A stretch of 64,000 nt of DNA. Source: Eledone cirrhosa. Lineage: Eukaryota. Positions 17,701-64,000 of this stretch are shown here, piece after piece; the first letter of the stretch is position 1; each line of letters starts with the position of its first letter. The stretch is taken from the NCBI GenBank assembly GCA_964016885.1, contig OZ024742.1, positions 85,312,001-85,376,000 of the forward strand. The letters are read 5' to 3'. The position numbers and the translations under genes are program-made. Under the pieces are notes generated by a model. The model searched no databases and had not been told where the DNA came from. It saw only the letters and a list, made by a program, of their open reading frames with translations.

Positions 17701-18699
17701 CACAATAGCTTGGGACGAGTGTGAAGTCGTCACTTCTTAATGGGGCCATGGATTGTTCTCTAGCCTCCTCTGGTGTTTCAAAGAACACGTCCACGGTTCC
17801 ATACTTTTGCCCACGTCTGATGTGGGTTTTTCTTGCCCGCACATGTCCCAAAGCTTTTTGGATTTGGGACTCGGGTGCCCGTTCCACTCGGTGCGATTTT
17901 ACATTTATTGTTCTATCTATACGACACGGTGCATAGGCGCCGATGCTCCATTTTATTAGGTGGGGGGGGGGCTGACCCTGTACCCATCTTTCTTTACCAT
18001 TTGTTTGGCATTTTCTAAATCCTCCTGATTTACCGTAAATGCTTCGAACTGTTTTGCTACTCTGGCGAAACTGAGGGGGGGGGGGTTATAATGTCATTGT
18101 TGTTGTTGTTGTTGCTATCGTTAATATTAATTTCAGTTTCAGTTGTGGTGGTGGTGACGTCAGTCGTCTTTGGTGGGGAAGAGTCCATTTTGCTTGATTT
18201 CATTTCGACATCACGAGTTAATTTATTTTTTTCTTCTTTTGTTTCTGTTGTCGCGGTGGTGGTGGTGGTGGTGGTTGTCGCGGTGGTGGTGTTGGTGGAG
18301 GCTTTAACACCTGCAGTCATTGGTAATGGCGGGAAATGAATGTCTGCCTGAGACAAATTTAAAATATTGCTAGTGCTTATATTTTTTTTTGTGTTGGCAA
18401 ACGTAGTAACATTTACAATGGTGGTGTCGGTGTGAGGTGTTAATTTGTGAGGACGGCTTTCAGCTGCTTCGTGCATAGGTGAATTAGCCATTTTTTTCAA
18501 AGAAACTTTTTTGATAATAATAAAAGTTTAAATTTTGGGCACAAGGCCCCAATCTTTTTGGGTGTCCTTTTCGGAAAACAATGTATGTGCGCTTATATAT
18601 GGTTAACAATAAAACATTTTCCATAAATGGCAATTTTTAACAAACGGAAATAACAAACCTTTGCGGAGCTCACGATGATACGATACTACGTAGGTCGCC
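14762..18699 (-). mobile_element. Chimeric Tx1-clade element: young family-X 3' part (14762-16772) joined to a divergent family-Y 5' UTR/ORF1 (16773-18699)
   Basis: The 3' part is near-identical to 48341-50364 (DQSKAFD, YADD; frameshifted). The ORF1 part is homologous but divergent (QIQKALG, VPSYCGQ, VEGRR). APE and the RT N-terminus are absent. Confidence 0.85.
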
Positions 18700-28971: not shown

Positions 28972-28998
28972 ATTATTATTATTATTGTTATTGTTATT

Positions 28999-33877: not shown

Positions 33878-33892
33878 TTTTTTTCCCCTTTA

Positions 33893-42600: not shown

Positions 42601-45376
42601 AGGTATCGGTGTCATTGTTGTTCTTGTTGTTTTCGTTGATACTGTTGCTGTTGTTCCGGTTATTGTGGCTGTTGTTATTATTGTTGTTTTTGTTGATACT
42701 GTTCCTACTATTATTGTTGTTGTGGCTGTTGTTATTGTTATTGTTATTGTCGTTCTCGACCTTACCGCTGTTATTTTTGTTATTGTCGTTCTCGGCTTTA
42801 CCGCTGTTATTTTTGGTGCTATTTTTGGTGTTGTTTGTGTTAGAAATATTTGTTAATTTTAAATCTGTAACAATCTTTTTCTATGTAATATCTTCGTTTA
42901 TATTTACCTCCGCTGGAACGCTGTCTTGTTGACATGATGATAAATTCTCCCTCTCTCTGTGTTAATGACAGCGCTCTCTCTCTTTCTTGTGTTATCCATG
43001 TTGAAATAAAAAAAAACATATTTCACACAAATACGACACCCCGTAAAGGGGTGCCGTATTATTTACGAGTGAACCGTTGTATTAGGTGGGTCACTTCTTC
43101 TAAACTTTTATCAAATTTAAAACTTGAATAAAAGGTTTAGGATGGTTGAAAACGAGGTAAAACGTTGAAAAAAAACTGGATGCGATAAGAAGCGTGGTTT
43201 CACCAACAATAATAATAATAATAATATAATAATAATAATGATAAGCAACAAGTCGAAGAATTACAGAACTAAACACAGACAAAAACAATTGCAACAACAG
43301 AAGAAAAACAAATTTCACAAGTTTTGAACGCAATAACCCCTACTTCTCTCGTAGCTAAAACCAAAAATAGCAGCAGCAGCAACAACAACAGTAGTAACCA
43401 ATGTTACTGGCCTTGAAAAACAAAAAGGTAAAAAGAAAAAGAATCAAAGTCAGACATTCAAATATTACATTGAAACTTATGTTTATTTTTTAAAGTGTTT
43501 ATCTATTTGATTGTTTATTTATGTTCGTCTACAGCGCGATGGTGCCACGCTAAAATCACTGGGGGTGATGAAATCACCGGTGGTTATGTCACCTTTCATT
43601 CACCAATCCTCGATATGAGTGTTTAAATGTCGAACCTAAACAATTCGAATAACGGTGAAGAGGAGACTGGAACGCCATGTAAAAGACTCTCACCCAGCAA
43701 GTGCTCGCTGGCCCAGCAGCAGGGACCTGGCTGTCATCCAAATAAAGCTGGTGTTGGAGGAAGGAGAAGGAAAGGGACAAGAACCAACTAGACGAAAGAA
43801 TTGAATAGAACTGTCATTGAATGTTACCTGAAGAGTAACTACATGGGAAAAGGCTTTAGGAAACGGATGCATAACATCTGGAAGGAAATTGGTCTATTTA
43901 AATTAGCTGAACAAAAATTGGCCGGGCAGGCTCGGGGAATAAGAACTCATGGATGGATAAGCGAGTTTGGAATTGGAGGAACTGAACAGAGAGACTAAGT
44001 TGGAAATGGAGAGTGGAGTATGTCAGGCAAACGAGCCAGTGGGAAATGAAGGTGAAGAGGTTAAGATACCTGAAAAAGCATCCGAAGCAGACAGTGATCT
44101 GAATGTTGGAATAAATAACATCTGGAACAAAGATACAGCCATTGAGGAAATGAATGCTGATGTGGTAGGACAAGATTTGGTTGATATCCTGAACTTAGTG
44201 GTAGATGAAATGAACAATGATAGGGGAAAACTTATCAACCTAAGATTTGTAGACAGGAAAACATTAAAATAATCAACAGCTAAAATAATTAAAGTCATCC
44301 CATACCTTGAGGCAACAATATCCTCAAAGCAACAGCAAATGCGGTGAGGAAATTACTTCGCATAAAAACGAGAGGAAACAACAAATAAGAAAGACCAGGA
44401 CCTTGGTGGAAGAAACGACTGAATGGTCAATTCAAGGAAATAAGTAGACATTGGAAAGCTTGAGTCGCTACTTAATGGGACATTACAAAACATAGACAGT
44501 AAAAATAGATTGGAAATAAAGTACAAAACTAGGAGGAAAAAGCTAAATATTATCATAGAGGAACTGAAGCAACGCGTTGTAGCAAAAAGTGCAAAGATTA
44601 GGCAGTATGAGAGCAGAGTCAGTCAGTATAGACAGAACCGACCGTTTGACAACAGCCAGAAGATGTTTGGACAGCTTGAAGGGAAAGAATGAGGCAACGA
44701 CATGATCCCTGAGGCGGAACAGAATAAAACATTCTGGAGAGGAATATGGGAACAGGATGTTGAACATAATCATCAGGCAGTGTGGATTGAGACAGTACAA
44801 AAGTAGATTCGAGAACAAGCACACCAACAAAATGATTTGAGTATCACAGTTGAAACTCTTAAAGGGCAGGCCAAAAAACTAACCAACTGGAAATCACCAG
44901 GCCCAGATGGTGTGCAGGGTATTGGATTAAATATATAACACCCCTTCACCCGAAACTGACAACCATGTTCAATGACTGCTTGATATCGGGTGAGGCACCA
45001 GAGTTGTTGACAAAAGGTACCATAGTTCTGGTAATGAATGAGCGAATCACGGGTAATGATGTTACCAACTATAGACCTATCACATGTCTGTCCGTAATGT
45101 GGAAACTGTTAACAAGCATTGTGTCTGAGGAAATCTACCATCACCTCCACATAAACAACTTGTTACCGGATGAACAGAAAGGATGCCGAAAGAAGTCCCG
45201 TGGTACAAAAGACCAGTTACTTATTGATAAGATGGTCATGAGGAATTGAAAGAGGAGACACACTGGTCTTGCCATGGGATGGATAGATTACAAAAAGGCA
45301 TTCGACATAGTACCTCATTCTTACATAAACAAAAGCCTAGTGATCTTCAAGGTGCAGATAACATCAGACAGTTGTT
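36621..45376 (+). mobile_element. Older family-A R4/Dong copy, 3'-truncated, interrupted in its 5' UTR by the Tx1 element at 37275-43204
   Basis: 36621-37170 is homologous to the 5' UTR start (GCTCCCGTA.GTTTT, CTAGATACA, CACTACAGT). 43242-43659 is the UTR end. 43660-45376 is a decayed ORF up to ADNIRQL. Confidence 0.82.
37275..43204 (-). mobile_element. Full-length but degraded Tx1-clade element, family Z
   Basis: Broken ORF1 (CYLCGSKGHLRAFC) and ORF2 (GDWN, SYLDR, DHK, DQSKAFD, YAD). 3' end AATAAAGAAATC. AAT runs on both sides. Confidence 0.9.
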
Positions 45377-45800: not shown

Positions 45801-48093
45801 CGGCGGTGTGTGAGTACACGCATACATTTATTCAAAGACTTAGATAAGTGCGCAGATTCAGATATGCTTATCTAGATATATTGCAAAATAAACAAAAATA
45901 TATTAATAAATGTAGTTTCTCTCCATATTTCATGTGTTTTTTTTTTATTATAGTAGGAATAGCAGTGATTATAGCCTTTCCAGGATCTCCAAGTTAGAGT
46001 ATTTACAGACCCGGGTGCTTTATCAAAAGCTATGATGTGTCTAAAGTAGCGTATGCCAGAAAGTTATTATGACTATAAAGTAATACTGATAAGCTGTTAG
46101 ATATCATAAACATGACAACTTGAGATTATGTTGCCCATGTTAAGCATATTCTCCTTAAATATTCATATATAGCTGGTTAAAATTTCAATTTTACACCGGC
46201 AATATATTTATCACAGGTATATGAACACTGTGTCGCCAAATGTTTATGAATTTTAATGATAACTATTTTAGTGATCTGCTAGAAACAACACGCCTATATC
46301 CTTGCAAACAAAATCGTGTTTACAAAGAATATGTATGTTGAAGTATTCTTAAATGAATCAGACATGAAACATAAATAGGTACGTAATAAGTTACCAGGTT
46401 ATATTTTATAAGTCAAGATTGTTTTAGTAAAATAACGTTGATGAATTAATCGTGTGATGAATTAATCGCTTTTAATATTTTTACTTTCCAATTTTTGGTT
46501 GGAGTTTTTGTGTCTGGTTTTGGATAATGTTTGATAAATAGGTTTGCTTCCTATAGGAGATTAGCAATTTTACTGGAAGATTTTATAGTGACATGTGATA
46601 GAATGTGACAGTAAAGATGAAATATTACATAAGGTTCCATTATTAATGTGATGTATTGATATTTATTTTATATGCGATTATATATTTCTTTACACGTTAG
46701 CTTTGGTGATTTTTGACTCCTCCTTATTATTTGAATGCTTAAATTCATCTCTGTTGTGTGTTGCGTTATACTTCATTGGGTCTTGCATTTTATTCGGTAG
46801 TTACTTGACGTAATACTGTTTATTAATCGAGATTATATTTTTACGTTATTATATAAGTTGTTTTTGTAAACATTTGTATATATATTCCACTTAGGTACTC
46901 CGTTTTATATATTTGAGATTGTAGAATTGTTTAATTCTACGAGATTCAGTTCTGTCTTATTAAATCGATAACCAGATAAAGGAATGAATTTTGAAACACT
47001 TAATGTCATTTGTTTCTTGTAGCTAATTGTGTACAGGAAGAGGTCATACATAAAGTGGTGTGCGATCATCATTGATACGTTGCTAATATGTGGGGACGGT
47101 ACACATTTCGATTATGTTAATTGTACTATATTTTAAAGCCTAACTGCATATGAAACGTAGTATTTCTCGGTATGTTTGTTCTTTCTCTATTTAGAAAATA
47201 CTCAGCTTTTGTAAACATATGTCAATTGACAAAAAATTCAAAAACATACGGAAGACATATAGAAACAACAAGGACCATTTAACATAAACTTCGCCTACGA
47301 AAATATGCCTTAATACGTTCACTTTCACATACCCTTAAATCTATTATATTCCGAATGCATTTCTTGTACCCTTTGTAATTCTTTTCGGACCTCCAATTAT
47401 GGGTTCCGGGTGTAGTTGTATAAACACATATATCAAATCAAATATATAGTGAGTTGACTGTATCACTTTTTAAATACATATTTTAAATTATAAATGCGAA
47501 TTAGAAATAAATAGCAATCCAGATTTCCATTCTCTGCAAACTTTTTTTAAACATGTATTATTTAACGTTAGGTAAACTATTAATAAATAACTTTCGTTGA
47601 ATTAACAACAGAGTTCTAAACCATTTTATGGAAGATTAATATATTATTGCCAAACATCAGTGGGCAACAAACGCTATTAAATTTTAATAGTTCTTAATAT
47701 GTTCTCTTTATTTAAAACACATTAAGAAATAAATATATTTCTTTTTAATTTAATAATAACATATTCAGTTGCAGTCATTTTTCATTAAGTTTCACCGAAC
47801 ATATAAATGAAATTGTATACACACACATATAAATACATTGCTTCGGTTTATTTTCTTGCCACATGTACAAAATTTTCTCATAAACTCCATAATAAATGTG
47901 TCGGCTAATTCTATATTAATTTCTACGTCAATTATCAAGTGAAACATTACATTTTATTCCCGTGATCAAAATATAATCACTCTCAAATATGTGAGAGAAA
48001 TATAAATTAAATACCATTACTACTAATAATAAAATTAATGCTGCTGCTCTTCACGTCCTCTTCCCCCTGTTACTACTACTAATAACAATAATT

Positions 48094-48280
48094 ATTTCAA
48101 TTTTGTGGCGTAATGCCAGTCATTTGAAGGGGATGAGAAAGTTGATTAAATCGACCCCAGTGCATTATTGGTGCTTTATTTTATCGACCCCGTAGGTATG
48201 AAAAACAAAGCTCAACTAGGCGGGAATTGAATTCAGAACGAAAAGGGATGATGCTGCCAATGCACCAACTTCTGACAGCC
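48094..48280 (-). mobile_element. Degraded tRNA-derived SINE, same family as 63478-63608
   Basis: Shares CCAGTGCATTA.TGGT.CTTTATTTTATCGACCCCGTA.G.ATGAAA and GGCGGGA.TTGAA.TCAGA with the 63.5-kb copy. Lies between AAT runs. Confidence 0.72.
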
Positions 48281-48288
48281 AATAAGAA

Positions 48289-48342
<54 letters not shown>

Positions 48343-48602
48343 TTTCTTTATTAACCACAAGGGTTTACATAAAGTAGACATTAAGGACAGTGCAGGACAA
48401 TGCAGGACGGTACAAATGGGCATTTCTGCGTGTAAAAAAACAAAAACAGAGGATGTAACAAAAATAACAATGAAAATAACAATGAAAAATTCCCCAATAG
48501 GGGGGAGACTTCGGAGGGACATTTGTGGAGAAAGCCCAGTAAAAAGCCACAATGACCCTGACCACCAAGGCAAGTGCCCTCTCCCAGTTTTCCACCTTTA
48601 GT

Positions 48603-51600
48603 TTACAGATATATACTCAGAGTCGGCCCATTCACTCGGGCCATTCTTGCTTCTCTCACCCATCTTTCAACAAAATGCTGGGAAGAGAGCACTTCCTTCT
48701 CTACTCTGATTTTCCTTTTCAAATGAAATTTGAAAAAGTCAATCAGAGCATCACCGAAGAGGTAAGTGCTCGTCTTCAGCCCTTTCAAACGTGTCCACCA
48801 TACTATCTCTTTCGCCATGGCCACCAGACAGATAAAAACTGCCTGCCCTTCCCGGCTAAAGGAGGAGGGCGGGGCAATCCTCACGATAGACTCAGATGAT
48901 AGCTGGATCCGTCCTAAACGCGACAGCAGGTGTTCGACATAAACCCACAAGTCAGCAATTTTCGGACACTGGACGAGTGCGTGCAGGACGGTTTCGTCGC
49001 CCTGCGCGCATCTCGGACATGCCCGGCTGACGGCACCTCCATGCCTGTAGAGTTTATCCCGAACTGGCAAGGCTCCTCGGTAGCACTGCCAGGCCAGAGA
49101 TTTCTGGAAGTTGTCCATAGGCCCTGGCCCGAAAGTTCTTCCGAAGAGATTGGCTAGTTGATTTTCGTCGACGCCTAGAGTTTCCCCAAGTACGTCGTCG
49201 CTCTTCCCCTCCACTAATCCTCTATAGAACGCCGAGGTGGAGTTTCCACCGATCACATTGCCCGATTGGTCGAGGGCTGTGAGCGCCTGAAGACATTCCA
49301 GTCTCCAGGCGCTCCCTCTCGGTCTTCGCTTGACCCAGGACTGCAGCTCCGTCAAGGAAACGAGCTGGGGAAAAACGCGTCTAGCAAACGGCGACCACAC
49401 CTGATCACCGTCGAGGAAGAGGTGGAGATGTCGTAGCCTGAGCGCGTGCCTGCGCATCATCAGCCACGGCATGCCCAGCCCTCCACGTAGCGGGTGTTGA
49501 CAACAGATGGACCGCCTGACCATCGGAGCACGTCCCTTCCACAAAAAGCGAAAGAGCAAACGCTCCAGCGCAGTCAGGCGAGGCTTAGGACAAGGTACGA
49601 CGGTTAGGCGGTAGCAGATGACAGACGCGATGTACGCGTTAGCCACCTCCGCTCGACCTTTCAGGGATAGCTTCCTCTCCGCCCATTTCTGGGTGAGAGA
49701 AGCCACCCTGCTCGTCACCTCGTCCCAGTTTTTGTCCGTCTGGAGGTCCGGACCGAACCAGACCCCTAGCAATTTAACCGGTCCGTCCGTCCAGCGCCCG
49801 ACGACGCTGTTGGACGGCATGGACCTGCCTCTCCAGGTGCCGAGCTGCAGGCCCACTGACTTTTCCTGGTTGATCATTGCTCCTGTCACCGCTTCGTATT
49901 CTCTTAGTGTAGTGCCGATCGCCTCGATGTGTTTGGCGTTCGACACCACTACGGTGACATCGTCCGCATATGCTGACACGGATCTTCCGCATCCTAGTTC
50001 GCGCGGGACCCCCCTCAACGTCTCCAGTTTGTGCAGTAATGGCTCGAGAGTCAATACGTACAAGAGGGACGAGAGGGGACATCCTTGGCGGACCGAGCGC
50101 ATGATGTTGAACGGTTCCGACAGGTGACCGTTCACTCTCACCACAGAGCAGATGTCGCTGTGCATGGCAGCGATCCAGCCTCTGAAGACGGGCCCAAAGC
50201 CAGCCGCCCTCAGGACTGCCGCTAGGTAACGATGGTCGACCCTATCGAAAGCTTTCGACAGATCTAAATTGATCAAGGACCCACCCGTGCCAGGTTCCCT
50301 AGCTACCCTCTCTACGATGTATCGCATGAGGTGGAGGTTGTCGTGGATGGATCTGTCGGGAATGGCGCATGTCTGCGCCTCTCCCACCAGACCACCAACG
50401 ACAAGCGCCAACCTCTTTGCTAGCACCTTGGCCAAAATCTTAAACTCTGTGTTTAGCAGAGTTATGGGCCGGAAATTTTCTATGTTATCCCCCTTGTTCG
50501 GATCCTTTCTCAGCAGTGCCACCGCTCCTCGGCTCACAGAACTGGGAATTCTCCCGTTCTGTTGCCAGTTGCAGTAGACGTCCGCCAAGAGGCCTCCGAA
50601 CAAGTCTGGCATCTGTACGTAAAGTTCATAGGGCAGACCATCCAAACCAGGCGATTTACCCCTTGTGCAGCCAGTCATTGCCTCCCGTACTTCAGCGGCT
50701 GTTATCGGCTTTTCGCAACACTTCGCCTCAGTGGCCGAGAGCCGCGGCAGTCCGTCGAGGTAGACACTAAAGTCCATCCCTCTACCCGGCCCCCCGCTGC
50801 CCCCGAACAGCTAAGCGAAGTGTCGCTGAAAAGCTTCACACATTTGCCCGGGATCGAGTAGCATGCGCCCGTCGTGGTCCACCAAAGACCGGATCGTGGC
50901 TTTGTTGCCACGACGCGCCTCCGCCACTCGGGCCCATTGAACGGCTTTCGTCCCCTCGTGTCTGAGAGCACGCACCCTAGCTCTGACAACGCAGCCTTCG
51001 TGCTTTGCATTGAAGAATTGGTCAAGGGCCAATTTCGCCGCAAGCACGTCGGTCGCAATGCCTTTGCTAAGCGCCTCGTCTAATTTTCTAACTAGTTCTC
51101 CCTCTGCTCTATTTTTCTCTATTGCTAAAGCCTTACTAAACCTAATCGATTCTATTCTAATCGCTCTTTTCAGAGCAAACCACCACTTGTTGTTGACGAT
51201 GGCCCCCGTCAACGCCCGCTTAACTAGTTCGCTAATCCGGTCTCTGTAGGCCTTGCGCGCTGGTAAGGACGCGTTTAGCTTCCAGTAGCCGGGTCCTCGT
51301 CTATGAAGCCTATCTAAGTCAAGCACACAGGTCACGAATTTGTGGTCCGTGTAGCTGACTATCTTGAATTGTGGACAGCCTATGCTAGACCTATCTATTT
51401 CCCTACAAAATACTCTATCTAGATATGATCTGGATGACCCTATGCGGTTTGTCCAAGTCCACATTGGCACATTCGGGAAATCCAATCGGTACCTGTCAGA
51501 CAGTTCAAAACGCCTGAGCAGGTTGGTGAGGCTCTTGCACCCTCCACCCCTATCCGCTAATCCCACACAGTCCCAGCGTGCATCTAAGATCCCGTTCCAG

Positions 51601-52022
51601 TCGCCCACTAACACTAAAGAGCGCGACGTTCCAAGAAAGGTCTCCAGACGCCGGAAGAAATCAGGCCGCCCTGCTCCTGTCGGGGCATAGACGGCCACTA
51701 GCCTGAAAGCTTGCCCGTCTCCGCTGGTCACGTCCAGCACCACCAGCTTACCCTCTGGGTCCAGGAAGATGGCCCGTATGGCGAGATCCAAACCTCTCCG
51801 AAAAAGCACAGCAACTCCTCCACCCGATCCAGGACGGCTGGGAGATGCGTACACATCGTAGCCGCCGAAGATCGGTGCGAAGGCCCGTGCTTCGGAGATT
51901 CTGGTCTCGCTGATGGCCACTACATCTATGTTTAGTGACCTGAGGTCGTTGAGCAGGTGACCCTGCTTCCATGACGACCCCAAGCCACGCGCATTTATGC
52001 TGCCTATTCTGAGTGAGGTCAT
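48603..52022 (-). pseudogene. Tx1 ORF2 (APE + RT + C-terminal Cys/His motif) with Q404-stop
   Basis: TAG at 50813-50811 where the sister copy has CAG. Also DLSKAFD versus DQSKAFD. Confidence 0.9.
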
Positions 52023-52057
52023 GTTTAAAATAGAGTGGAAAAGATGGGAAAGACCAC

Positions 52058-54151
52058 TTACCGTACTTTTGGTAGAGGAGGGATGGTTTTTACATCCCTT
52101 TTCACTTGATCGTCTGGTGAAGGGACCGTTGAATCGTCCCTTCGGCTGGTCGTCGGCTCTTCTAAGAGAATGTCTGAATATACTCTTCGATTGATGGTTC
52201 CTCCTAGGTCCCTGAAATCACCAACTGCGTTGGGGAATTTCGTTTTAATGTTTGTGTATTGTTTCTGTGCTATTTTTAGCAGTCTTATGTTAGTTGGCGT
52301 TTTGATTGGTGCTGGTATTATGTAGTCCTGTTGTGAAATGTCTGTGTGTTCAATTATGTAAGTCATTAGTTTCTTGTTGTGTGTGTTTATTGCCGTGCAT
52401 TTGTTTTTCTGGGGGTGGGGTGTGGTTCTGCTATTTTCTTGTCGTTGTTGCTGGGTGTGTGTGTTTTGTTGTTGTGTTTGCGATGTTGGTGCTTGTGGTG
52501 GTGGTGTTGAAGGTGTTGTTGGCGGTGGGGTTGTCGCCGGTGGCGATGGTGGTGCTGGTGTGGGTGGTGATGGTGTTGGTGGTGTTGCTGCTGTGGGTCT
52601 CTTTGCAGTAGACCTTACCCTTTTCTCATTTCTTTCCTCCCTTTTCAAAGGCGACGATTCGCTGCTTCTGCGTTTGTGCCTTCTTGCGACCTTTTGCCAT
52701 CCCTCTCCCACCTCACACTCCATGTCTGATTCTGTAAGGTCGGGGAGGGGTACCAGCTCCACTCTTTCACTTGTTGTTGTTGGTGATGTTTGCACTGGAG
52801 TCTCTGTTGCAGCTGCATTTGGTATTGCTGTTGTTGTTGTTAATATTTCCACTGCTGCTGCTGTCTTTGATTTCCGTGGAGTGGGTATGGGTGCCACGGA
52901 CCTATCGTTCCTGGTTGCCGCTTGTCCTGTTGCTGGTAGCCGTGGAGCCGGATTCGGAAGGAGGGGGGTTTTCTCCTTTCTCAGGGTCTTCTCGTTGCAG
53001 AAGGCCCTGAGGTGAGTCTTCGATCCACAGCGAAAGCATTTCGGGCGTTTGCCCTCAACACTTATGGGCAGTTGAGTGCCGTTATCGAAGTCTATCACAT
53101 CCGGGATAGCTTCGATGCACTCCTGGTTGGTTTGGATTAGCATCTCAATGGAGGAGCCGACCCAATCTTCTCTTACTTTTTTCTGTACTTGCAGTACAGT
53201 TGTTTTGTCCTCGATTCCGACGAGGACAGACGCGGCCAGCCAAGAAGGGGTCATTCCGGGGGGGACGTGGGTCAGTTTGACCCTCACAATTTTTTGCCCG
53301 CAGTAGGAGGGCACCAACACCATTTCCTCGCTCCTTAGGGTCACTACTGATTGGGCCTTTGCCTCCTGGGGTGTGGCAAAAAGTACGTCTACGGTGGCGT
53401 ATTTTTTGCCTCGGGTGATGTGCGTTTTCCTCTGCCACACAGACCCCAAGGCTTTTTGTATTTGGGCCTCTGTGGCTCTTTCCACCCTACGGGATTTTGT
53501 ACTTACTGTACGGTACGTGACCGTACAGTGCTCTTGGGTCTCGAAAAACTTTTCCGCTGCCTTGCAGATTGCTCGGTGTCCGTTCTTTGTCACCATCTTC
53601 TTCGCTTCCTCTAATTCCTCATTTGTTATGAGGATTGTTTCCAAGTTTTTCGCAATACCTGCAAATGAGATTGGTTTTTCTCTGCTGTTGTTGTTGTCGT
53701 CAGAGCTGCTGGTACTTTTGTTGCTGCAGGTACTACGACTACTGCCTCCGCCGCTGTTGCTGTGGTTGTTGTTGGTGTTGCTGCTGCTAATGCTGTTGTT
53801 GTTTATGCTGCTGGTGATGCTGTTGCGGCTGCTACTGTTGTTTTCATTGTCACTGTTGCTGTTGTTATTACGGCTGCTACTGCTATTATTCCTGACGTCA
53901 GACGAATGAACTGGGTTTTCGTATTTCCCGCACACCTGTTTCGTCGCTGTCGTCGTCGTCGTGGAGAAACCTTGCACGCTTTGCACGAGACTTTTCTTTT
54001 CTTTCGTCGCTTGCGAAAGAGAAGGGAGGGAGAGAGACACATTTAAAGAAGGGAGGGAGAGAGACAATCTTCTCTCTGCTGTAGTGATGATTGAGGAAGA
54101 AGAAGACGGAATGAGTGGGAGTGACGTATGAAATTTCTTTTTGGTAGCCAT
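52058..54151 (-). CDS. Tx1 ORF1 (RRM-like region, CX2CX4HX4C knuckle, S/N- and P/T/Q-rich tracts)
   Basis: Open frame; first ATG at 54151 (MATKKK); CFRCGSKTHLRAFC. Confidence 0.88.
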   Translation of the reverse strand: MATKKKFHTSLPLIPSSSSSIITTAERRLSLSLPSLNVSLSLPSLSQATKEKKSLVQSVQGFSTTTTTATKQVCGKYENPVHSSDVRNNSSSSRNNNSNSDNENNSSSRNSITSSINNNSISSSNTNNNHSNSGGGSSRSTCSNKSTSSSDDNNNSREKPISFAGIAKNLETILITNEELEEAKKMVTKNGHRAICKAAEKFFETQEHCTVTYRTVSTKSRRVERATEAQIQKALGSVWQRKTHITRGKKYATVDVLFATPQEAKAQSVVTLRSEEMVLVPSYCGQKIVRVKLTHVPPGMTPSWLAASVLVGIEDKTTVLQVQKKVREDWVGSSIEMLIQTNQECIEAIPDVIDFDNGTQLPISVEGKRPKCFRCGSKTHLRAFCNEKTLRKEKTPLLPNPAPRLPATGQAATRNDRSVAPIPTPRKSKTAAAVEILTTTTAIPNAAATETPVQTSPTTTSERVELVPLPDLTESDMECEVGEGWQKVARRHKRRSSESSPLKREERNEKRVRSTAKRPTAATPPTPSPPTPAPPSPPATTPPPTTPSTPPPQAPTSQTQQQNTHTQQQRQENSRTTPHPQKNKCTAINTHNKKLMTYIIEHTDISQQDYIIPAPIKTPTNIRLLKIAQKQYTNIKTKFPNAVGDFRDLGGTINRRVYSDILLEEPTTSRRDDSTVPSPDDQVKRDVKTIPPLPKVR

Positions 54152-54650
54152 GTTTTTTTGTTTAAAATGAAATTTTGAGTACAAAACCCCAATAACTGGT
54201 TATTTAACCCCGAAGGGCCAAATAACGGACAGAAAGACCCCTCTCACGAGGAGGAGGGTGTCTTTATCAACAATTTGGTTCAAGTTTTAAACAATTTACA
54301 ATTGTTTTAACGGTTAAAAATTACTATACCTTACAGAGCCGAGCCTCCGTCAACCATGGCATTCAATAATAATAATAATAATAATAATGATTTCTTTATT
54401 AACCACAAGGGTTTACATAAAGTAGACATTAAGGACAGTGCAGGACAATGCAGGACGGTACAAATGGGCATTTCAGCGTGTAAAAAAACAAAAACAGAGG
54501 ATGTAACAAAAATAACAATGAAAATAACAATGAAAAATTCCCCAATAGGGGGGAGACTTCGGAGGGACATTTGTGGAGAAAGCCCAGTAAAAAGCCACAA
54601 TGACCCTGACCACCAAGGCAAGTGCCCTCTCCCAGTTTTCCACCTTTAGT

Positions 54651-57600
54651 TTACAGATATATACTCAGAGTCGGCCCATTCACTCGGGCCATTCTTGCTT
54701 CTCTCACCCATCTTTCAACAAAATGCTGGGAAGAGAGCACTTCCTTCTCTACTCTGATTTTCCTTTTCAAATGAAATTTGAAAAAGTCAATCAGAGCATC
54801 ACCGAAGAGGTAAGTGCTCGTCTTCAGCCCTTTCAAACGTGTCCACCATACTATCTCTTTCGCCATGGCCACCAGACAGATAAAAACTGCCTGCCCTTCC
54901 CGGCTAAAGGAGGAGGGCGGGGCAATCCTCACGATAGACTCAGATGATAGCTGGATCCGTCCTAAACGCGACAGCAGGTGTTCGACATAAACCCACAAGT
55001 CAGCAATTTTCGGACACTGGACGAGTGCGTGCAGGACGGTTTCGTCGCCCTGCGCGCATCTCGGACATGCCCGGCTGACGGCACCTCCATGCCTGTAGAG
55101 TTTATCCCGAACTGGCAAGGCTCCTCGGTAGCACTGCCAGGCCAGAGATTTCTGGAAGTTGTCCATAGGCCCCGGCCCGAAAGTTCTTCCGAAGAGATTG
55201 GCTAGTTGATTTTCGTCGACGCCTAGAGTTTCCCCAAGTACGTCGTCGCTCTTCCCCTCCACTAATCCTCTATAGAACGCCGAGGTGGAGTTTCCACCGA
55301 TCACATTGCCCGATTGGTCGAGGGCTGTGAGCGCCTGAAGACATTCCAGTCTCCAGGCGCTCCCTCTCGGTCTTCGCTTGACCCAGGACTGCAGCTCCGT
55401 CAAGGAAACGAGCTGGGGAAAAACGCGTCTAGCAAACGGCGACCACCCCTGATCACCGTCGAGGAAGAGGTGGAGATGTCGTAGCCTGAGCGCGTGCCTG
55501 CGCATCATCAGCCACGGCATGCCCAGCCCTCCACGTAGCGGGTGTTGACAACAGATGGACCGCCTGACCATCGGAGCACGTCCCTTCCACAAAAAGCGAA
55601 AGAGCAAACGCTCCAGCGCAGTCAGGCGAGGCTTAGGACAAGGTACGACGGTTAGGCGGTAGCAGATGACAGACGCGATGTACGCGTTAGCCACCTCCGC
55701 TCGACCTTTCAGGGATAGCTTCCTCTCCGCCCATTTCTGGGTGAGAGAAGCCACCCTGCTCGTCACCTCGTCCCAGTTTTTGTCCGTCTGGAGGTCCGGA
55801 CCGAACCAGACCCCTAGCAATTTAACCGGTCCGTCCGTCCAGCGCCCGACGACGCTGTTGGACGGCATGGACCTGCCTCTCCAGGTGCCGAGCTGCAGGC
55901 CCACTGACTTTTCCTGGTTGATCATTGCTCCTGTCACCGCTTCGTATTCTCTTAGTGTAGTGCCGATCGCCTCGATGTGTTTGGCGTTCGACACCACTAC
56001 GGTGACATCGTCCGCATATGCTGACACGGATCTTCCGCATCCTAGTTCGCGCGGGACTCCCCTCAACGTCTCCAGTTTGTGCAGTAATGGCTCGAGAGTC
56101 AATACGTACAAGAGGGACGAGAGGGGACATCCTTGGCGGACCGAGCGCATGATGTTGAACGGTTCCGACAGGTGACCGTTCACTCTCACCACAGAGCAGA
56201 TGTCGCTGTGCATGGCAGCGATCCAGCCTCTGAAGACGGGCCCAAAGCCAGCCGCCCTCAGGACTGCCGCTAGGTAACGATGGTCGACCCTATCGAAAGC
56301 TTTCGACTGATCTAAATTGATCAAGGACCCACCCGTGCCAGGTTCCCTAGCTACCCTCTCTACGATGTATCGCATGAGGTGGAGGTTGTCGTGGATGGAT
56401 CTGTCGGGAATGGCGCATGTCTGCGCCTCTCCCACCAGACCACCAACGACAAGCGCCAACCTCTTTGCTAGCACCTTGGCCAAAATCTTAAACTCTGTGT
56501 TTAGCAGAGTTATGGGCCGGAAATTGTCTATGTTATCCCCCTTGTTCGGATCCTTTCTCAGCAGTGCCACCGCTCCTCGGCTCACAGAACTGGGAATTCT
56601 CCCGTTCTGTTGCCAGTTGCAGTAGACATCCGCCAAGAGGCCTCCGAACAAGTCTGGCATCTGTACGTAAAGTTCATAGGGCAGACCATCCAAACCAGGC
56701 GATTTACCCCTTGTGCAGCCAGTCATTGCCTCCCGTACTTCAGCGGCTGTTATCGGCTTTTCGCAACACCTCGCCTCAGTGGCCGAGAGCCGCGGCAGTC
56801 CGTCGAGGTAGACACTAAAGTCCATCCCTCTACCCGGCCCCCCGCTGCCCCCGAACAGCTGAGCGAAGTGTCGCTGAAAAGCTTCACACATTTGCCCGGG
56901 ATCGAGTAGCATGCGCCCGTCGTGGTCCACCAAAGACCGGATCGTGGCTTTGTTGCCACGACGCGCCTCCGCCACTCGGGCCCATTGAACGGCTTTCGTC
57001 CCCTCGTGTCTGAGAGCACGCACCCTAGCTCTGACAACGCAGCCTTCGTGCTTTGCATTGAAGAATTGGTCAAGGGCCAATTTCGCCGCAAGCACGTCGG
57101 TCGCAATGCCTTTGCTAAGCGCCTCGTCTAATTTTCTAACTAGTTCTCCCTCTGCTCTATTTTTCTCTATTGCTAAAGCCTTACTAAACCTAATCGATTC
57201 TATTCTAATCGCTCTTTTCAGAGCAAACCACCACTTGTTGTTGACGATGGCCCCCGTCAACGCCCGCTTAACTAGTTCGCTAATCCGGTCTCTGTAGGCC
57301 TTGCGCGCTGGTAAGGACGCGTTTAGCTTCCAGTAGCCGGGTCCTCGTCTATGAAGCCTATCTAAGTCAAGCACACAGATCACGAATTTGTGGTCCGTGT
57401 AGCTGACTATCTTGAATTGTGGACAGCCTATGCTAGACCTATCTATTTCCCTACAAAATACTCTATCTAGATATGATCTGGATGACCCTATGCGGTTTGT
57501 CCAAGTCCACATTGGCACATTCGGGAAATCCAATCGGTACCTGTCAGACAGTTCAAAACGCCTGAGCAGGTTGGTGAGGCTCTTGCACCCTCCACCCCTA

Positions 57601-58070
57601 TCCGCTAATCCCACACAGTCCCAGCGTGCATCTAAGATCCCGTTCCAGTCGCCCACTAACACTAAAGAGCGGGACGTTCCAAGAAAGGTCTCCAGACGCC
57701 GGAAGAAATCAGGCCGCCCTGCTCCTGTCGGGGCATAGACGGCCACTAGCCTGAAAGCTTGCCCGTCTCCGCTGGTCACGTCCAGCACCACCAGCTTACC
57801 CTCTGGGTCCAGGAAGATGGCCCGTATGGCGAGATCCAAACCTCTCCGAAAAAGCACAGCAACTCCTCCACCCGATCCAGGACGGCTGGGAGATGCGTAC
57901 ACATCGTAGCCGCCGAAGATCGGTGCGAAGGCCCGTGCTTCGGAGATTCTGGTCTCGCTGATGGCCACTACATCTATGTTTAGTGACCTGAGGTCGTTGA
58001 GCAGGTGACCCTGCTTCCATGACGACCCCAAGCCACGCGCATTTATGCTGCCTATTCTGAGTGAGGTCAT
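54651..58070 (-). CDS. Tx1 ORF2, 1139 aa: apurinic-like endonuclease + reverse transcriptase + C-terminal Cys/His motif
   Basis: SINARGL, ISET, VYAP, GDWN, SYLDR, TDHK, YWKLN; KSPGLDGL, FRPITLLN, DQSKAFDRV, RQGCPLS, YADD, GGLG; CPRC...ETVLHALVQC. Confidence 0.95.
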   Translation of the reverse strand: MTSLRIGSINARGLGSSWKQGHLLNDLRSLNIDVVAISETRISEARAFAPIFGGYDVYASPSRPGSGGGVAVLFRRGLDLAIRAIFLDPEGKLVVLDVTSGDGQAFRLVAVYAPTGAGRPDFFRRLETFLGTSRSLVLVGDWNGILDARWDCVGLADRGGGCKSLTNLLRRFELSDRYRLDFPNVPMWTWTNRIGSSRSYLDRVFCREIDRSSIGCPQFKIVSYTDHKFVICVLDLDRLHRRGPGYWKLNASLPARKAYRDRISELVKRALTGAIVNNKWWFALKRAIRIESIRFSKALAIEKNRAEGELVRKLDEALSKGIATDVLAAKLALDQFFNAKHEGCVVRARVRALRHEGTKAVQWARVAEARRGNKATIRSLVDHDGRMLLDPGQMCEAFQRHFAQLFGGSGGPGRGMDFSVYLDGLPRLSATEARCCEKPITAAEVREAMTGCTRGKSPGLDGLPYELYVQMPDLFGGLLADVYCNWQQNGRIPSSVSRGAVALLRKDPNKGDNIDNFRPITLLNTEFKILAKVLAKRLALVVGGLVGEAQTCAIPDRSIHDNLHLMRYIVERVAREPGTGGSLINLDQSKAFDRVDHRYLAAVLRAAGFGPVFRGWIAAMHSDICSVVRVNGHLSEPFNIMRSVRQGCPLSSLLYVLTLEPLLHKLETLRGVPRELGCGRSVSAYADDVTVVVSNAKHIEAIGTTLREYEAVTGAMINQEKSVGLQLGTWRGRSMPSNSVVGRWTDGPVKLLGVWFGPDLQTDKNWDEVTSRVASLTQKWAERKLSLKGRAEVANAYIASVICYRLTVVPCPKPRLTALERLLFRFLWKGRAPMVRRSICCQHPLRGGLGMPWLMMRRHALRLRHLHLFLDGDQGWSPFARRVFPQLVSLTELQSWVKRRPRGSAWRLECLQALTALDQSGNVIGGNSTSAFYRGLVEGKSDDVLGETLGVDENQLANLFGRTFGPGPMDNFQKSLAWQCYRGALPVRDKLYRHGGAVSRACPRCAQGDETVLHALVQCPKIADLWVYVEHLLSRLGRIQLSSESIVRIAPPSSFSREGQAVFICLVAMAKEIVWWTRLKGLKTSTYLFGDALIDFFKFHLKRKIRVEKEVLSSQHFVERWVREARMARVNGPTLSIYL

Positions 58071-58105
58071 GTTTAAAATAGAGTGGAAAAGATGGGAAAG
58101 ACCAC

Positions 58106-60184
58106 TTACCGTACTTTTGGTAGAGGAGGGATGGTTTTTACATCCCTTTTCACTTGATCGTCTGGTGAAGGGTCCGTTGAATCGTCCCTTCGGCTGGTCG
58201 TCGTCTCTTCTAAGAGAATGTCTGAGTATACTCTTCGATTGATGGTTCCTCCTAGGTCCCTGAAATCACCAACTGCGTTGGGGAATTTCGTTTTAATGTT
58301 TGTGTATTGTTTCTGTGCTATTTTTAGCAGTCTTATGTTAGTTGGCGTTTTGATTGGTGCTGGTATTATGTAGTCCTGTTGTGAAATGTCTGTGTGTTCA
58401 ATTATGTAAGTCATTAGTTTCTTGTTGTGTGTATTTATTGCCGTGCATTTGTTTTTCTGGGGGTGGGGTGTGGTTCTACTATTTTCTTGTCGTTGTTGCT
58501 GGGTGTGTGTGTTTTGTTGTTGTGTTTGCGATGTTGGTGCTTGTGGTGGTGGTGTTAAATGTGTTGTTGGCGGTGGTGATGGTGGTGCTAGTGTGGGTGG
58601 TGATGGTGTTGGTGTTGTTGCTGCTGTGGGTCTCTTTGCAGTAGACTTTACCCTTTTCTCATTTCTTTCCTCCCTTTTCAAAGGCGACGATGCGCTGCTT
58701 CTGCGTTTGTGCCTTCTTACGACCTTTTGCCATCTCTCTCCCACCTCACACTCCATGTCTGATTCTGTGAGGTCGGGGAGGGGTACCAACTCCAATCTTT
58801 CACTTGTTGTTGTTGGTGATGTTTGCACTGGAGTCTCTGTTGCAGCTGCATTTGGTATTGCTGTTGTTGTTGTTAGTATTTCCACTGCTGCTGCTGTTTT
58901 TGATTTCCGTGGAGTGGGTATGGGTGCCACGGGCCTATCGTTCCTGGTTGCCGCTTGTCCTGTTGCTGGTAGCCGTGGAGCCGGATTCGGAAGGAGGGGG
59001 GTTTTCTCCTTTCTCAGGGTCTTCTCGTTGCAGAAGGCCCTGAGGTGAGTCTTCGATCCACAGCGAAAGCATTTCGGGCGTTTGCCCTCAACACTTATGG
59101 GCAGTTGAGTGCCGTTATCGAAGTCTATCACATCCGGGATAGCTTCGATGCACTCCTGGTTGGTTTGGATTAGCATCTCAATGGAGGAGCCGACCCAATC
59201 TTCTCTTACTTTTTTCTGTACTTGCAGTACAGTTGTTTTGTCCTCGATTCCGACGAGGACAGACGCGGCCAGCCAAGAAGGGGTTATTCCGGGGGGGACG
59301 TGGGTCAGTTTGACCCTCACAATTTTTTGCCCACAGTAGGAGGGCACCAACACCATTTCCTCGCTCCTTAGGGTCACTACTGATTGGGCCTTTGCCTCCT
59401 GGGGTGTGGCAAAAAGTACGTCTACGGTGGCATATTTTTTGCCTCGGGTGATGTGCGTTTTCCGCTGCCACACAGACCCCAAGGCTTTTTGTATTTGGGC
59501 CTCTGTGGCTCTTTCCACCCTACGGGATTTTGTACTTACTGTACGGTACGTGACCGTACAGTGCTCTTGGGTTTCGAAAAAATTTTTCGCTGCCTTGCAG
59601 ATTGCTCGGTGTCCGTTCTTTGTCACCATCTTCTTCGCTTCCTCTAATTCCTCATTTGTTATGAGGATTGTTTCCAAGTTTTTCGCAATACCTGCAAATG
59701 AGATTGGTTTTTCTCTGCTGTTGTTGTTGTCGTCAGAGCTGCTGGTACTTTTGTTGCTGCAGGTACTACGACTACTGCCTCCGCCGCTGTTGCTGTGGTT
59801 GTTGTTGGTGTTGCTGCTGCTAATGATGTTGTTGTTTATGCTGCTGGTGATGCTGTTGCGGCTGCTACTGTTGTTTTCATTGTCACTGTTGCTGTTGTTA
59901 TTACGGCTGCTACTGCTATTATTCCTGACGTCAGACGAATGAACTGGGTTTTCGTATTTCCCGCACACCTGTTTCGTCGCTGTCGTCGTCGTCGTGGAGA
60001 AACCTTGCACGCTTTGCACGAGACTTTTCTTTTCTTTCGTCGCTTGCGAAAGAGAAGGGAGGGAGAGAGACACATTTAAAGAAGGGAGGGAGAGAGACAA
60101 TCTTCTCTCTGCTGTAGTGATGATTGAGGAAGAAGAAGACGGAATGAGTGGGAGTGACGTATGAAATTTCTTTTTGGTAGCCAT
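58106..60184 (-). CDS. Tx1 ORF1
   Basis: Open frame; first ATG at 60184; CCHC knuckle; differs from the sister copy by a short in-frame indel in the Pro-rich tract. Confidence 0.88.
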   Translation of the reverse strand: MATKKKFHTSLPLIPSSSSSIITTAERRLSLSLPSLNVSLSLPSLSQATKEKKSLVQSVQGFSTTTTTATKQVCGKYENPVHSSDVRNNSSSSRNNNSNSDNENNSSSRNSITSSINNNIISSSNTNNNHSNSGGGSSRSTCSNKSTSSSDDNNNSREKPISFAGIAKNLETILITNEELEEAKKMVTKNGHRAICKAAKNFFETQEHCTVTYRTVSTKSRRVERATEAQIQKALGSVWQRKTHITRGKKYATVDVLFATPQEAKAQSVVTLRSEEMVLVPSYCGQKIVRVKLTHVPPGITPSWLAASVLVGIEDKTTVLQVQKKVREDWVGSSIEMLIQTNQECIEAIPDVIDFDNGTQLPISVEGKRPKCFRCGSKTHLRAFCNEKTLRKEKTPLLPNPAPRLPATGQAATRNDRPVAPIPTPRKSKTAAAVEILTTTTAIPNAAATETPVQTSPTTTSERLELVPLPDLTESDMECEVGERWQKVVRRHKRRSSASSPLKREERNEKRVKSTAKRPTAATTPTPSPPTLAPPSPPPTTHLTPPPQAPTSQTQQQNTHTQQQRQENSRTTPHPQKNKCTAINTHNKKLMTYIIEHTDISQQDYIIPAPIKTPTNIRLLKIAQKQYTNIKTKFPNAVGDFRDLGGTINRRVYSDILLEETTTSRRDDSTDPSPDDQVKRDVKTIPPLPKVR

Positions 60185-60418
60185 GTTTTTTTGTTTAAAA
60201 TGAAATTTTGGGTACAAAACCCCAATAACTGGTTATTTAACCCCGAAGGGCCAAATAACGGACAGAAAGACCCCTCTCACGAGGAGGAGGGTGTCTTTAT
60301 CAACAATTTGGTTCAAGTTTTAAACAATTTACAATTGTTTTAACGGTTAAAAATTACTATACCTTACAGAGCCGAGCCTCCGTCAACCATGGCATTCAAT
60401 AATAATAATAATAATAAT

Positions 60419-61449: not shown

Positions 61450-61539
61450 TAATAATAATAATAAATGTCTTCTAATCGATGTATCGTTGCACACATTCAG
61501 AATATATCTATCAATCGCATGGTGAAACTAAATATAGAT

Positions 61540-61810: not shown

Positions 61811-63477
61811 ATAATAATTATCATCAGCGATAATAATTGATTTTCTAATATTTTTGAAGAGCTACTTTTTATCCAGCGCTTTGCATCGCTTCGAAAATTA
61901 AGTACTTTACATTCAATGTTGTTACATTCATAACTGAAAGTCTTAATCTTCTAATTTGGATTGGAATTTGGTTCTAGGTCTTTCTTCAAGATCCAGAGTT
62001 AGATTCTTCATAGCAACAACTGGACAATTGCTTCTGTACATAGGGTATATTACCAGATTCTTTCTATGCTATTATTTATAGCAATAGACTTTATTTGTAA
62101 TTATTTCTGCTTTGGAGTTTCTTAAATTTTCTGTGCTAAATCATACAATTGCTGATGTTAATGATGATTTATTTTATTGGCGAGAAAAACAAAATATGGC
62201 GCCAATACAAGCCGTAAACATCACTGTTTATGAACCTCACCGAATAAACGAAAGGGAAGAACGTTGGTATGATAATATGAATTGTAGTAAATATTCATAA
62301 TCGCAATTGCACATGATAACAAATACCAAGTTCGCTTTTTTCCTTCTGATTACTTCGTGAGAGTAGATTGATTCTGCACCTTCAATTTCATCTTTTATAA
62401 AACATAATGGAATGCAGCAACTCCCACTTAAAACTACGTACTATCTCAAATATGACATGAAAAAGTTGTTGAGGGTTTGGCCAACGAGAAGGTTTCTCCT
62501 CCTCAAAACATTTAGAAGTGTCCAGCAAAAATCTTCCTTAGGCGTAACTACCAGGAAGATATATTAGCTTCCCTGCCATCTAAATGGTAGAAGCTCATTA
62601 TTTTACAAATCAGGTGTACTGAACTATAGCATACAGCACATTTCTGTTGCATTGTGTGCCACTTGAATATGTCCGGCTTTTGTTACTTCGTTTCCTGTAG
62701 ACTTTGAATAGAACTCGTTGTGCCCTCTATAGGAATGCCATTCCGAGTAATTTTTCTCCATAATCTTCGGCCTCAAATTATTCTAGAATAGGCGGTTCAG
62801 ATTTTCCTCGCCAAATCACAGATGAAAAATATATCTAAAATAATCAATATTCAAAGGAGGAAAGAGAGCATTTGTTGTCGGCTAGGGGAAAAAAAATCAT
62901 AGGAAGTCAGATATAGAGATAAAAAATAAAACAAAATGTTTAAGGTGGATAAATAAATATATATAAAAAAAAACAATTAATCAAATGAATTACTGGATGG
63001 GGTTACTTGACTTTGACTGCGTCAGTATTTTGTCACACATATTAGTCGTCTCTTAAGCTATTTATTTAATTATATTTTATGCTTGATTTTACTTAATTTC
63101 CGAGAATTGATTTGGTTCGATATCAATAAATATAATTATGTCTGTGACCCTGTATATAACCTTATGCGCACTACTCTATTCCAAACCTCGTAAATAAGAT
63201 GGATGCATACAGGATATTTTCCCAGTTATAGACTGGTAAGGCCCACTGATCCGAAGGAGTAAACGAGAAGATTTCACCGTAACGGCATATATACGAATCT
63301 GAGAGAGACGGTATCCAAAACAATAATATAACAGTAAGGGAATATCAAAGCATACCTACACAACAAACATAACATTCCCTGACAATGATGCATTCATTTC
63401 TAATGTTTGGAGTAACAGCGTTGGAATTTGTTGTCAAATAGTTTTCTGTCTTTATATAATATATATCTCCTAATAAT

Positions 63478-63608
63478 TGTTTCTACTTTAGGCACAAGGC
63501 CAGCAATTAACCAGTGCATTACTGGTACTTTATTTTATCGACCCCGTAAGGATGAAAGGCAAAGTCAACCTCGGCGGGATTTGAACTCAGATCGTAAAGG
63601 GACGTAAC
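63478..63608 (-). mobile_element. 5'-truncated tRNA-derived SINE with an 18-bp target-site duplication
   Basis: Pol III B-box GTTCAAATCC (minus, 63586-63577). TSD TATATATCTCCTAATAAT at 63460-63477 and 63609-63626. Resembles an abundant Octopus SINE (from recollection, not a database match). Confidence 0.82.
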
Positions 63609-64000
63609 TATATATCTCCTAATAATGGGCATCCATTGCGGGGTCGATGTAACTTTACCAAAATAATTTGATTTAATAGATACATATATGAGAACCACAT
63701 ACTTCAAGTCAACGTTTCTGTAAGAATTCTCTTGCTGTCAGTTGATAACTTCTCTCACTGATATGTTTTCGTTCCAGCAATTTACAGCAGCGCAGCATAC
63801 AATTAACATATGGGCAACCATTCAAATGTAGTTTGAACATGAATATGTCATCGCCATATGTATTTTCAAATTCTTCATATATTTATATCTAGCAAATATA
63901 AATCTTGTAATTGCCCCTGCATTTATTTCCTCTGAATATGATGTGTAAAATTGAATATGTAGTTTCAAATGATTTGAAAACCGGTTTTCCTACTTGGAAT

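Follow-up and report, generated by a model that had tools for sequence, protein, structure and literature searches.

The 64,000-nucleotide stretch of Eledone cirrhosa DNA considered here (contig OZ024742.1, positions 85,312,001 to 85,376,000; hereafter the window, with coordinates counted from its first letter) holds two copies of a short interspersed element (SINE) among two young families of long interspersed elements (LINEs), both of which use (AAT)n tracts as nesting sites. The first LINE family is of the Tx1 type and related to L1: it has two open reading frames (ORFs), the second with an apurinic-type endonuclease (APE), a reverse transcriptase (RT) and a zf-RVT domain in Pfam, and it ends in an ATT tail on the sense strand. 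The second has a single ORF (7646-11071) closest to R2 in the PDB, a restriction-like endonuclease (RLE) motif seen directly and an AAT tail on the sense strand; no LINE in the window is younger or more numerous, its copies being 98-99% identical. Since Dong elements target TAA repeats (PMC3812793; this and the other published sources are cited for the parts covered), we use the name Dong-like for it. We conclude that the SINE is probably a non-autonomous retroposon that captured its 3' tail from this Tx1 lineage, and propose that a small hairpin in that tail is recognised by Tx1 ORF2.

The two SINE copies, their duplications and associated features are as follows.

63478..63608, minus strand: SINE copy 1 (SINE1), 131 nt, 5'-truncated, lacking about 30 nt between core and tail relative to copy 2; 86% identical to copy 2 over 93 nt
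48093..48280, minus strand: SINE copy 2 (SINE2), 188 nt, older and longer; hairpin stem kept at 48107-48117, loop changed, upstream C-rich block retained
63460..63477, no strand: duplication of SINE1, 3'-junction copy; last 7 nt ambiguous between RNA tail and target
63609..63626, no strand: duplication of SINE1, 5'-junction copy, with 2.3 ATT units of the original target
48081..48092, no strand: duplication of SINE2, 3'-junction copy; 11/12 identical to 48281-48292, seen directly
48281..48292, no strand: duplication of SINE2, 5'-junction copy, running on into the AAT tract that is the tail of Tx1-B4
63578..63586, minus strand: B-box-like motif in SINE1, called by eye
37256..37265, minus strand: remnant in the ATT tract that follows Tx1-Z; its 10 nt are those with which SINE1 ends

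Several features of the class are present: a length below 700 nt, no coding capacity, dispersed copies, a target-site duplication and a simple-repeat tail. The duplication that the sequence-only reading had reported at SINE1 is exact over 18 nt (63460-63477 and 63609-63626), extendable on neither side, and its 18-mer occurs at these two sites only in the window. The remnant that it had noticed at about 37255-37265 is likewise present. Its 10-mer recurs only in SINE1, with about 0.2 occurrences expected in a shuffled window and about 4e-4 beside an ATT-like tract, the latter figure being post hoc. It is probably a minimal, extremely 5'-truncated SINE insertion, although decay of the ATT tract might have produced the same letters. 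Tx1-B4 and SINE2 share a strand and adjoin each other, B4 upstream, with the tail tract of B4 (48281-48340) serving as the 5' flank of the SINE. Just beyond the 5' duplication of SINE1, 19-23 nt of SINE core recur in the opposite orientation (63630-63652, plus strand; E about 0.6-0.9 window-wide), possibly an older copy.

Five copies of the Tx1-type family are present in the window.

54389..60397, minus strand: Tx1-B5, intact; ORF1 with CCHC knuckle, ORF2 at 54651-58070 (APE, RT, zf-RVT), flanks (AAT)8 and (AAT)7
48341..54364, minus strand: Tx1-B4, 99% identical to B5 and in tandem with it; ORF2 interrupted by a stop
37275..43207, minus strand: Tx1-Z, older subfamily, 76% identical to B5
14762..18699, minus strand: Tx1-B1, chimeric
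24195..28971, minus strand: Tx1-B2, 5'-truncated

In the PDB the best match of the Tx1-type ORF2 is L1 ORF2 (E 3e-52, versus 1e-21 for R2), and its best named relative is a protein of Argonauta hians (69% identity), which points to an octopod host. AAT tracts adjoin all five 3' ends and four of the five 5' ends, the remaining 5' end adjoining an inversion. In Tx1-B5 the ORF1 knuckle, C-X2-C-X4-H-X4-C, was seen directly; ORF1 gave no relevant Pfam match, and we take such a knuckle to be a feature of the Tx1 clade. A quick RT tree resolved a clade of 21 rows, with its position among fish elements not resolved in a tree that included no labelled Tx1 reference. The Tx1 label thus fits the architecture and targeting of the element as predicted from sequence, named Tx1 references lying outside the comparison.

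The link between SINE and Tx1 was first proposed from an ungapped match of 18/25 positions between the SINE1 end (63475-63499) and the Tx1-Z end (37272-37296). The match is real, but three of its positions are the AAT of the junction, leaving 15/22 in the informative part. The last 22 nt of SINE1 match Z, B1, B4 and B5 equally well, at 15/22, and B2, which has a 1-nt deletion, at 9/22. When anchored on the junction, 15/22 lies beyond chance (16 of 200,000 and 9 of 200,000 shuffles, about 1e-4), and among the 2,715 window 22-mers that precede ATT, at least 14 matches are reached only by the SINE itself and the four Tx1 ends. It had further been noted that all SINE and Tx1 copies share a strand. 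All five Tx1 3' ends and both SINEs do end in ATT on the sense strand, yet the shared orientation is partly circular, the tail itself being ATT; an indication free of this circularity comes from the 5' copy of the SINE1 duplication, whose ATTATTA lies on the strand of the Tx1 tails (about 4e-4 by local composition). The Dong-like element, which the sequence-only reading had not weighed in this role, would be a rival mobiliser, as the youngest and most numerous LINE in the window and one named after an element that targets TAA repeats (PMC3812793), and SINE2 does align with its 74-nt 3' untranslated region (UTR) at a score reached by 16 of 1000 shuffles, in one of 16 tests. Its junction-anchored end, however, matches the two SINE copies at 6/22 and 7/22, its sense-strand AAT tail is opposite to that of the SINE, and it has no CUUGU hairpin; we regard this mobiliser as barely credible.

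What the Tx1 ends and SINE1 have in common, besides the repeat, is a small hairpin with a CUUGU loop.

63491..63501, minus strand: SINE1 tail hairpin, 3-bp G-C stem and CUUGU loop; 11-mer identical in distant Tx1 3' ends
54401..54413, minus strand: Tx1-B5 3' hairpin, 4-bp stem and CUUGU loop, with AATAAA immediately after
48353-48365, minus strand: Tx1-B4 3' hairpin
37288-37298, minus strand: Tx1-Z 3' hairpin, with a compensatory change
14774-14786, minus strand: Tx1-B1 3' hairpin
18535..18562, minus strand: copy of the ancestral tail motif in the Tx1-B1 5' UTR, comprising a C/A-rich block, the identical 11-nt hairpin and a short ATT run; best match of the covariance model described below, E 0.026
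60210..60222, minus strand: homologous hairpin in the Tx1-B5 5' UTR, with a compensatory change; present in B4 too

Among 154 CTTGT sites in the window, only seven have a Watson-Crick stem of at least 3 bp: those at the 3' ends of four Tx1 copies and of SINE1, one in the B1 5' UTR and one internal site. The end of the loop stands exactly 16 nt ahead of the ATT tail in SINE1 and in four of the five Tx1 3' ends. A motif defined from the B5 end alone is present in SINE1 and arose in 9 of 500,000 shuffles of the SINE tail (47 of 500,000 with a slack of +/-3 nt). The shared stem is recovered unprompted by RNAalifold, and all four of its pairs are changed on both sides, a covariation score reached by none of 500 shuffles and far lower in slid registers.

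The copies of the hairpin in Tx1 5' UTRs lie about 40 nt before ORF1; that in B1 resembles a captured SINE or Tx1 tail, and none is recognisable in Tx1-Z. Two more strong hairpins, one with a UUCG loop, occur in the 5' UTR of Tx1-B5 (60230-60300, minus strand). The idea that the entire Tx1 5' UTR is a captured SINE was dropped, its alignments being reached by 139-702 of 1000 shuffles.

To look beyond the window, the genome contig collection was scanned with the ORF2 alignment, which returned 44 loci covering 412 kb. Thirty-nine of these were used for the 3' UTR count; L040-L043 were excluded because the match stops before the ORF2 C-terminus, and L005 because it has no 3' sequence. The SINE1 11-mer, with 0-1 mismatch and all mismatches in the loop, is present in 37/39 of these 3' UTRs, 21-25 nt before AATAAA; it is found in none of L038-L043. 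Over the full 412 kb it has 50 matches, all on the element strand, and 49/50 lie at that same distance from AATAAA. Eight subfamily representatives share an identity of 0.81 ahead of the hairpin but only 0.30 past AATAAA, a drop that places the 3' end there. The 37 hairpin-bearing loci make up two families. These share 48% identity, have 40-41% identity to the window ORF2 and stand as sister to the octopod elements, in one clade with the window ORF2 (SH-aLRT 100, quick tree). The hairpin is therefore common to three deep branches of the Tx1 lineage. Most of the loci (38/44) are eukaryote-type tandem Tx1 arrays in one assembly: L001-L037 and L044, on CAXXMW01 contigs of a bacterial bin, are arranged head to tail with a period of about 6.4 kb and without a microsatellite spacer. 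These arrays are likely eukaryotic (host) DNA within the bin. Between the shared hairpin and AATAAA they have one more hairpin, which covaries too; Rfam found nothing in the four of 44 loci that were scanned.

Both SINE copies are closer to the distant Tx1 tail than the local Tx1 tails are. Over the 36 nt ending at the hairpin, compared with the tails of L003 and L010, SINE2 matches at 21/36 and SINE1 at 18/36, against 13-15/36 for the local Tx1 ends; the comparison is anchored on the hairpin, so its shuffle counts are optimistic. SINE1 lacks the upstream block, which it has lost relative to SINE2. The chance reading frame of the SINE, used as a protein query, matched six proteins, three of which are read-throughs of further SINE copies. 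One SINE-derived ORF, P0126, extends as far as the tail; aligned without gaps to the translated tail of L003, it agrees at 10/13 residues, where the best of 30 shuffles reached 8. The other three proteins (P0125, P0127 and P0128) were set aside as repeat-rich chance matches.

These distant 3' ends also bear on where in Tx1 the SINE tail came from. The best ungapped match in the window to the last 22 nt of SINE1 is the B1 5' UTR (17/22), which would suit a tail derived from the 5' UTR copy of the motif, by internal deletion or a bipartite origin, rather than from the 3' end. In the distant families, however, the motif stands at the 3' end only, with 49/50 matches at the fixed distance from AATAAA, and a short ATT run comes after the B1 copy, which is what a captured tail would show. 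A 5' UTR origin is highly unlikely.

Several observations weigh against a Tx1-derived tail, and some of them are what similarity by chance, or by convergence of short A/T-rich ends, would predict. Unanchored tail identity is at chance: 9 of 127,956 window 22-mers, the SINE included, match at 15 positions or more, one of them an unrelated 22-mer at 16/22. Local alignment of the whole SINE to the local Tx1 3' UTRs is not significant (768 of 1000 and 645 of 1000 shuffles), such that a BLAST-based partner test would fail, and the window Tx1 copies, the only ones compared, do not provide an alignable tail of 35-61 nt at 72-95% identity as in the pairs of PMC11481361. The last 22 nt of SINE2, whose loop has changed, match local Tx1 at the chance level of 9-10/22, a point absent from the sequence-only reading. 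The folds are weak, at -2 to -5 kcal/mol, with z near 0 except for SINE2 at -1.9; Tx1-B2 has the same loop but a broken closing pair and folds differently; and the rows behind the covariation are mutually related, the structure having been picked from those same rows. A covariance model built from the distant tails ranks SINE1 4th of 32 matches (E 0.33) but picks up neither SINE2 nor any of the five local Tx1 3' ends, which marks the shared tail signal as short and position-dependent; a weight matrix from the same tails does no better, both being too weak alone. The 11-mer is missing from the two most distant elements examined (28-31% identity), and the 37 loci that carry it belong to just two families of a single assembly; the effective sample is three branches rather than 37 loci. 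The distant tandem arrays lack ATT tracts, so the hairpin is older than, or independent of, ATT targeting and marks the lineage only. Finally, only 2-3 SINE insertions were examined, and the CR1, L2 and RTE tails of the genome were outside the comparison. Against mere chance or convergence stand the exact 11-mer at independent Tx1 3' ends, the 10/13 residues of P0126 and the compensated stems. This explanation, which the three together largely refute, is very improbable.

Capture of the tail from the Tx1 lineage leaves the immediate mobiliser to be considered. The sequence-only reading had named the window Tx1 as the SINE's partner and proposed ORF2 54651-58070 for a trans-mobilisation assay. 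Its case for the lineage has been strengthened by the hairpin, spacing, strand and tail repeat, and on this sequence evidence an ATT-targeting Tx1 appears the best candidate for mobilising the SINE; that this particular ORF2 is the direct partner is not established, since the stem of its element has drifted and the upstream C-rich/A-rich block is absent. The direct partner could quite plausibly be a sister Tx1 family elsewhere in the genome, at somewhat less than an even chance. Because Octopus vulgaris has 80 L1-Tx1 families, 13 of them recently active (PMC13282606), such a sister family is at least as likely as B4/B5. Only slightly less likely, the partner may be the window Tx1 family itself, reading only the loop and its spacing. 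The SINE retains the ancestral G-C stem and the C/A-rich block that the young window Tx1 has lost.

The 18-bp duplication had also been taken to reveal the geometry of the cut, a claim that is not supported. Because tail and target overlap at the 3' junction, 7 nt there may be assigned to either, and the stagger lies anywhere from 11 to 18 nt. A stagger of 18 nt implies cleavage at T/G, just beyond the AAT units, and one of 12 or 15 implies cleavage at T/A, with AAT on both sides in the case of 15; L1 endonuclease cleaves TpA (PMC6007223). The duplication at SINE2 is about 12 nt (11/12), for a stagger of 6-12. If the remnant is real, the 9 nt between it and Tx1-Z fall short of 18, although tracts may contract with age. 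The (AAT)8 and (AAT)7 flanks of the intact Tx1 were correctly reported, and Tx1 flanks in general run 3-14 AAT units; these tracts consist of nothing but repeat, and the Dong-like element has since inserted in several, so that they set only upper bounds on duplication. The cleavage stagger is thus not defined by the present data. The net gain is a different matter: tail and duplication total 18 nt at SINE1 wherever the nick lies, so that the earlier estimate of about six AAT units per event survives for SINE1, where it is robust, and gives way to about 12 nt at SINE2. The suggestion that an insertion needs only about two AAT units has a single site behind it.

Duplication length also bears on whether the SINE tail, though Tx1-derived in ancestry, is now moved by another ATT-tailed LINE such as RTE, CR1 or L2, the ATT at the target reflecting annealing of tail to target. 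In Octopus vulgaris, 13 families of RTE and 13 of CR1 have been active recently (PMC13282606); a duplication of 11-12 nt would suit RTE, whose mode is 10-12, and overlap of tail and target has been described for CR1, L2 and RTE (PMC6007223). The 15-18 nt reading of the duplication, however, fits the L1-type range better (PMC6007223), SINE1 keeps the exact loop and 16-nt ATT spacing of the local Tx1, and the window contains no RTE, CR1 or L2 LINE. A switch to such a mover is improbable.

For mobilisation by Tx1, the following sequence of steps may be envisaged. By analogy with L2 ORF2, the ORF2 of an octopod ATT-targeting Tx1 would bind the hairpin in the SINE tail; its APE would nick an (AAT)n strand; the (AUU)n end of the RNA would anneal to the freed 3' end and prime reverse transcription; and a second nick, 11-18 nt from the first (12 or 15 for cleavage at T/A), would finish the insertion, adding 12-18 nt of tail and duplication. 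A broader scenario, which we put forward as speculative and rather unlikely as a whole, is that an old animal Tx1 lineage reads a hairpin with a CU(U/C/A)GU loop stringently, that a major octopod SINE captured this hairpin and inherited microsatellite targeting with it, and that, as SINE tails make fresh ATT tracts on the strand targeted by Tx1, Tx1 copies landing right behind them took a SINE-type tail into their 5' UTR, in a two-way exchange that would feed (AAT)n growth.

The SINE head gave no match: ARAGORN found 0 tRNA genes, and Rfam no tRNA or U1/U2 match around either copy, copy 1 being truncated. The B-box-like call at 63578..63586 assumes the general RNA polymerase III consensus. The idea that the core might be a 66-bp Meta domain gained no backing, its motifs being absent from the published bivalve MetaSINE alignments with one supplement file left out. 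A profile built from the SINE-derived ORFs recovered, among 80 candidates, only its three input proteins; a DNA pattern of the SINE core had 0 matches in the genome contig collection; the SINE translation matched none of the longer proteins searched; and a motif search across paper texts returned one, irrelevant, match.

Copies of the Dong-like element are found at these positions.

6277-11145, plus strand: Dong-like RLE copy
11206-14731, plus strand: Dong-like RLE copy
21447-24167, plus strand: Dong-like RLE copy
60420-61414, plus strand: Dong-like RLE copy
28990-33892, minus strand: Dong-like RLE copy
33980-36603, minus strand: Dong-like RLE copy

Dong-like and Tx1 elements occupy the same (AAT)n tracts on opposite strands and meet tail to tail at 14732-14761 and 24168-24194. 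The segment 28972-36621 is an inverted block in which Dong-like copies and tracts are reversed, and its left edge truncates Tx1-B2. Tx1-Z interrupts the 5' region of an old Dong-like copy (36622-37236 and 43245-45376; 70-84% identical to the young copies), and an AT irregularity in both AAT tracts flanking Tx1-Z may mark its duplication. The chimera Tx1-B1 is 96% identical to B5 over its 3' 2.0 kb and only about 65% over its 5' 1.9 kb, with the join near 16775 and most of ORF2 gone. A third, decayed RLE-type LINE with a TAA tail lies at 18728-21393 (plus strand; 31-37% to the Dong-like ORF), and about 61465-61810 (plus strand) is probably the decayed 3' end of another. The segments 1084-2840 and 4097-5226 hold nested inverted repeats between (TA)n tracts and a 982-bp unit that has 268-bp direct repeats at both ends and a 330-aa open frame without Pfam match; this unit looks Penelope-like.

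Octopus SINE classes include tRNA-Deu and tRNA-CORE, and tRNA-derived SINEs of octopus were reportedly described by Ohshima and Okada in 1994. The present SINE resembles the latter in its likely host group and size, a comparison by description, not by sequence, and the family is probably already among the catalogued octopus SINEs. SINEs make up 11.6% of the Octopus vulgaris assembly, most recently active families being unclassified (PMC13282606), and the parts of the octopus literature covered name no partner LINE for them. Bivalve SINEs have been paired with CR1, CR1-Zenon, L2 and Nimb (PMC11481361). In the open literature, apart from Repbase entries, subscription papers and figures, we found neither a tail-sharing SINE-Tx1 pair nor an ATT-specific Tx1.

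A common tail with a stem-loop is the classic tie between SINEs and LINEs. The closest parallels in mechanism are UnaSINE/UnaL2 and zebrafish ZfL2-1/ZfL2-2, of the stringent type, in which SINE and LINE have in common a short-repeat tail and, before it, a 3' stem-loop that is identified by its loop and whose stem can be exchanged (PMC4176376, PMC3747384); in ZfL2-1/ZfL2-2, ORF2 reads the loop and tolerates stem swaps given an intact stem (PMC4176376). Unlike these, the putative partner here is of L1/Tx1 type and not L2, the stem is only 3-5 bp, and the system is known from sequence alone. In target choice the element resembles two sets of Tx1-clade families, namely Kibi and Koshi, which use TC and TTC repeats, and those of crocodilians that use TTCC/TTTC; all are APE-type two-ORF elements that enter microsatellites in one orientation (PMC4494074, PMC3812793). 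Its target, however, is ATT/AAT, which the covered part of PMC3812793 lists only for Dong, and the parts covered report no SINE partner for these families. SINEU and Tx1-Mar of crocodilians offer a precedent for a SINE assigned to a target-specific Tx1, with a common target and SINE-like sequence at Tx1 5' ends; that pairing was made from target preference and heads, no LINE having matched the 3' half of SINEU-1 in the part of PMC4494074 covered. In the present case SINE and LINE are linked by a 3' hairpin common to both, Rfam gives no U1/U2 match for the head, and insertion is into a microsatellite. ZmSINE2/LINE1-1_ZM of maize and sorghum and SINEX-3/L1-1_CR of Chlamydomonas likewise combine an L1-clade LINE, a conserved 3' hairpin with compensatory changes and a tail-sharing SINE, but they are plant and algal, are not target-specific and have a different loop (PMC3747384). 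Table 1 of that source names no Tx1 partner for any SINE, its L1-clade pairs being plant and algal. A SINE and a Tx1 that share a tail would, if true, bring into this list a clade of partners that it lacks and bear on the question, raised there from plant and algal cases, of whether L1-clade elements were ancestrally stringent; with an 11-nt hairpin and an intact microsatellite-specific ORF2 in hand, it would be directly testable by swaps of loop and stem.

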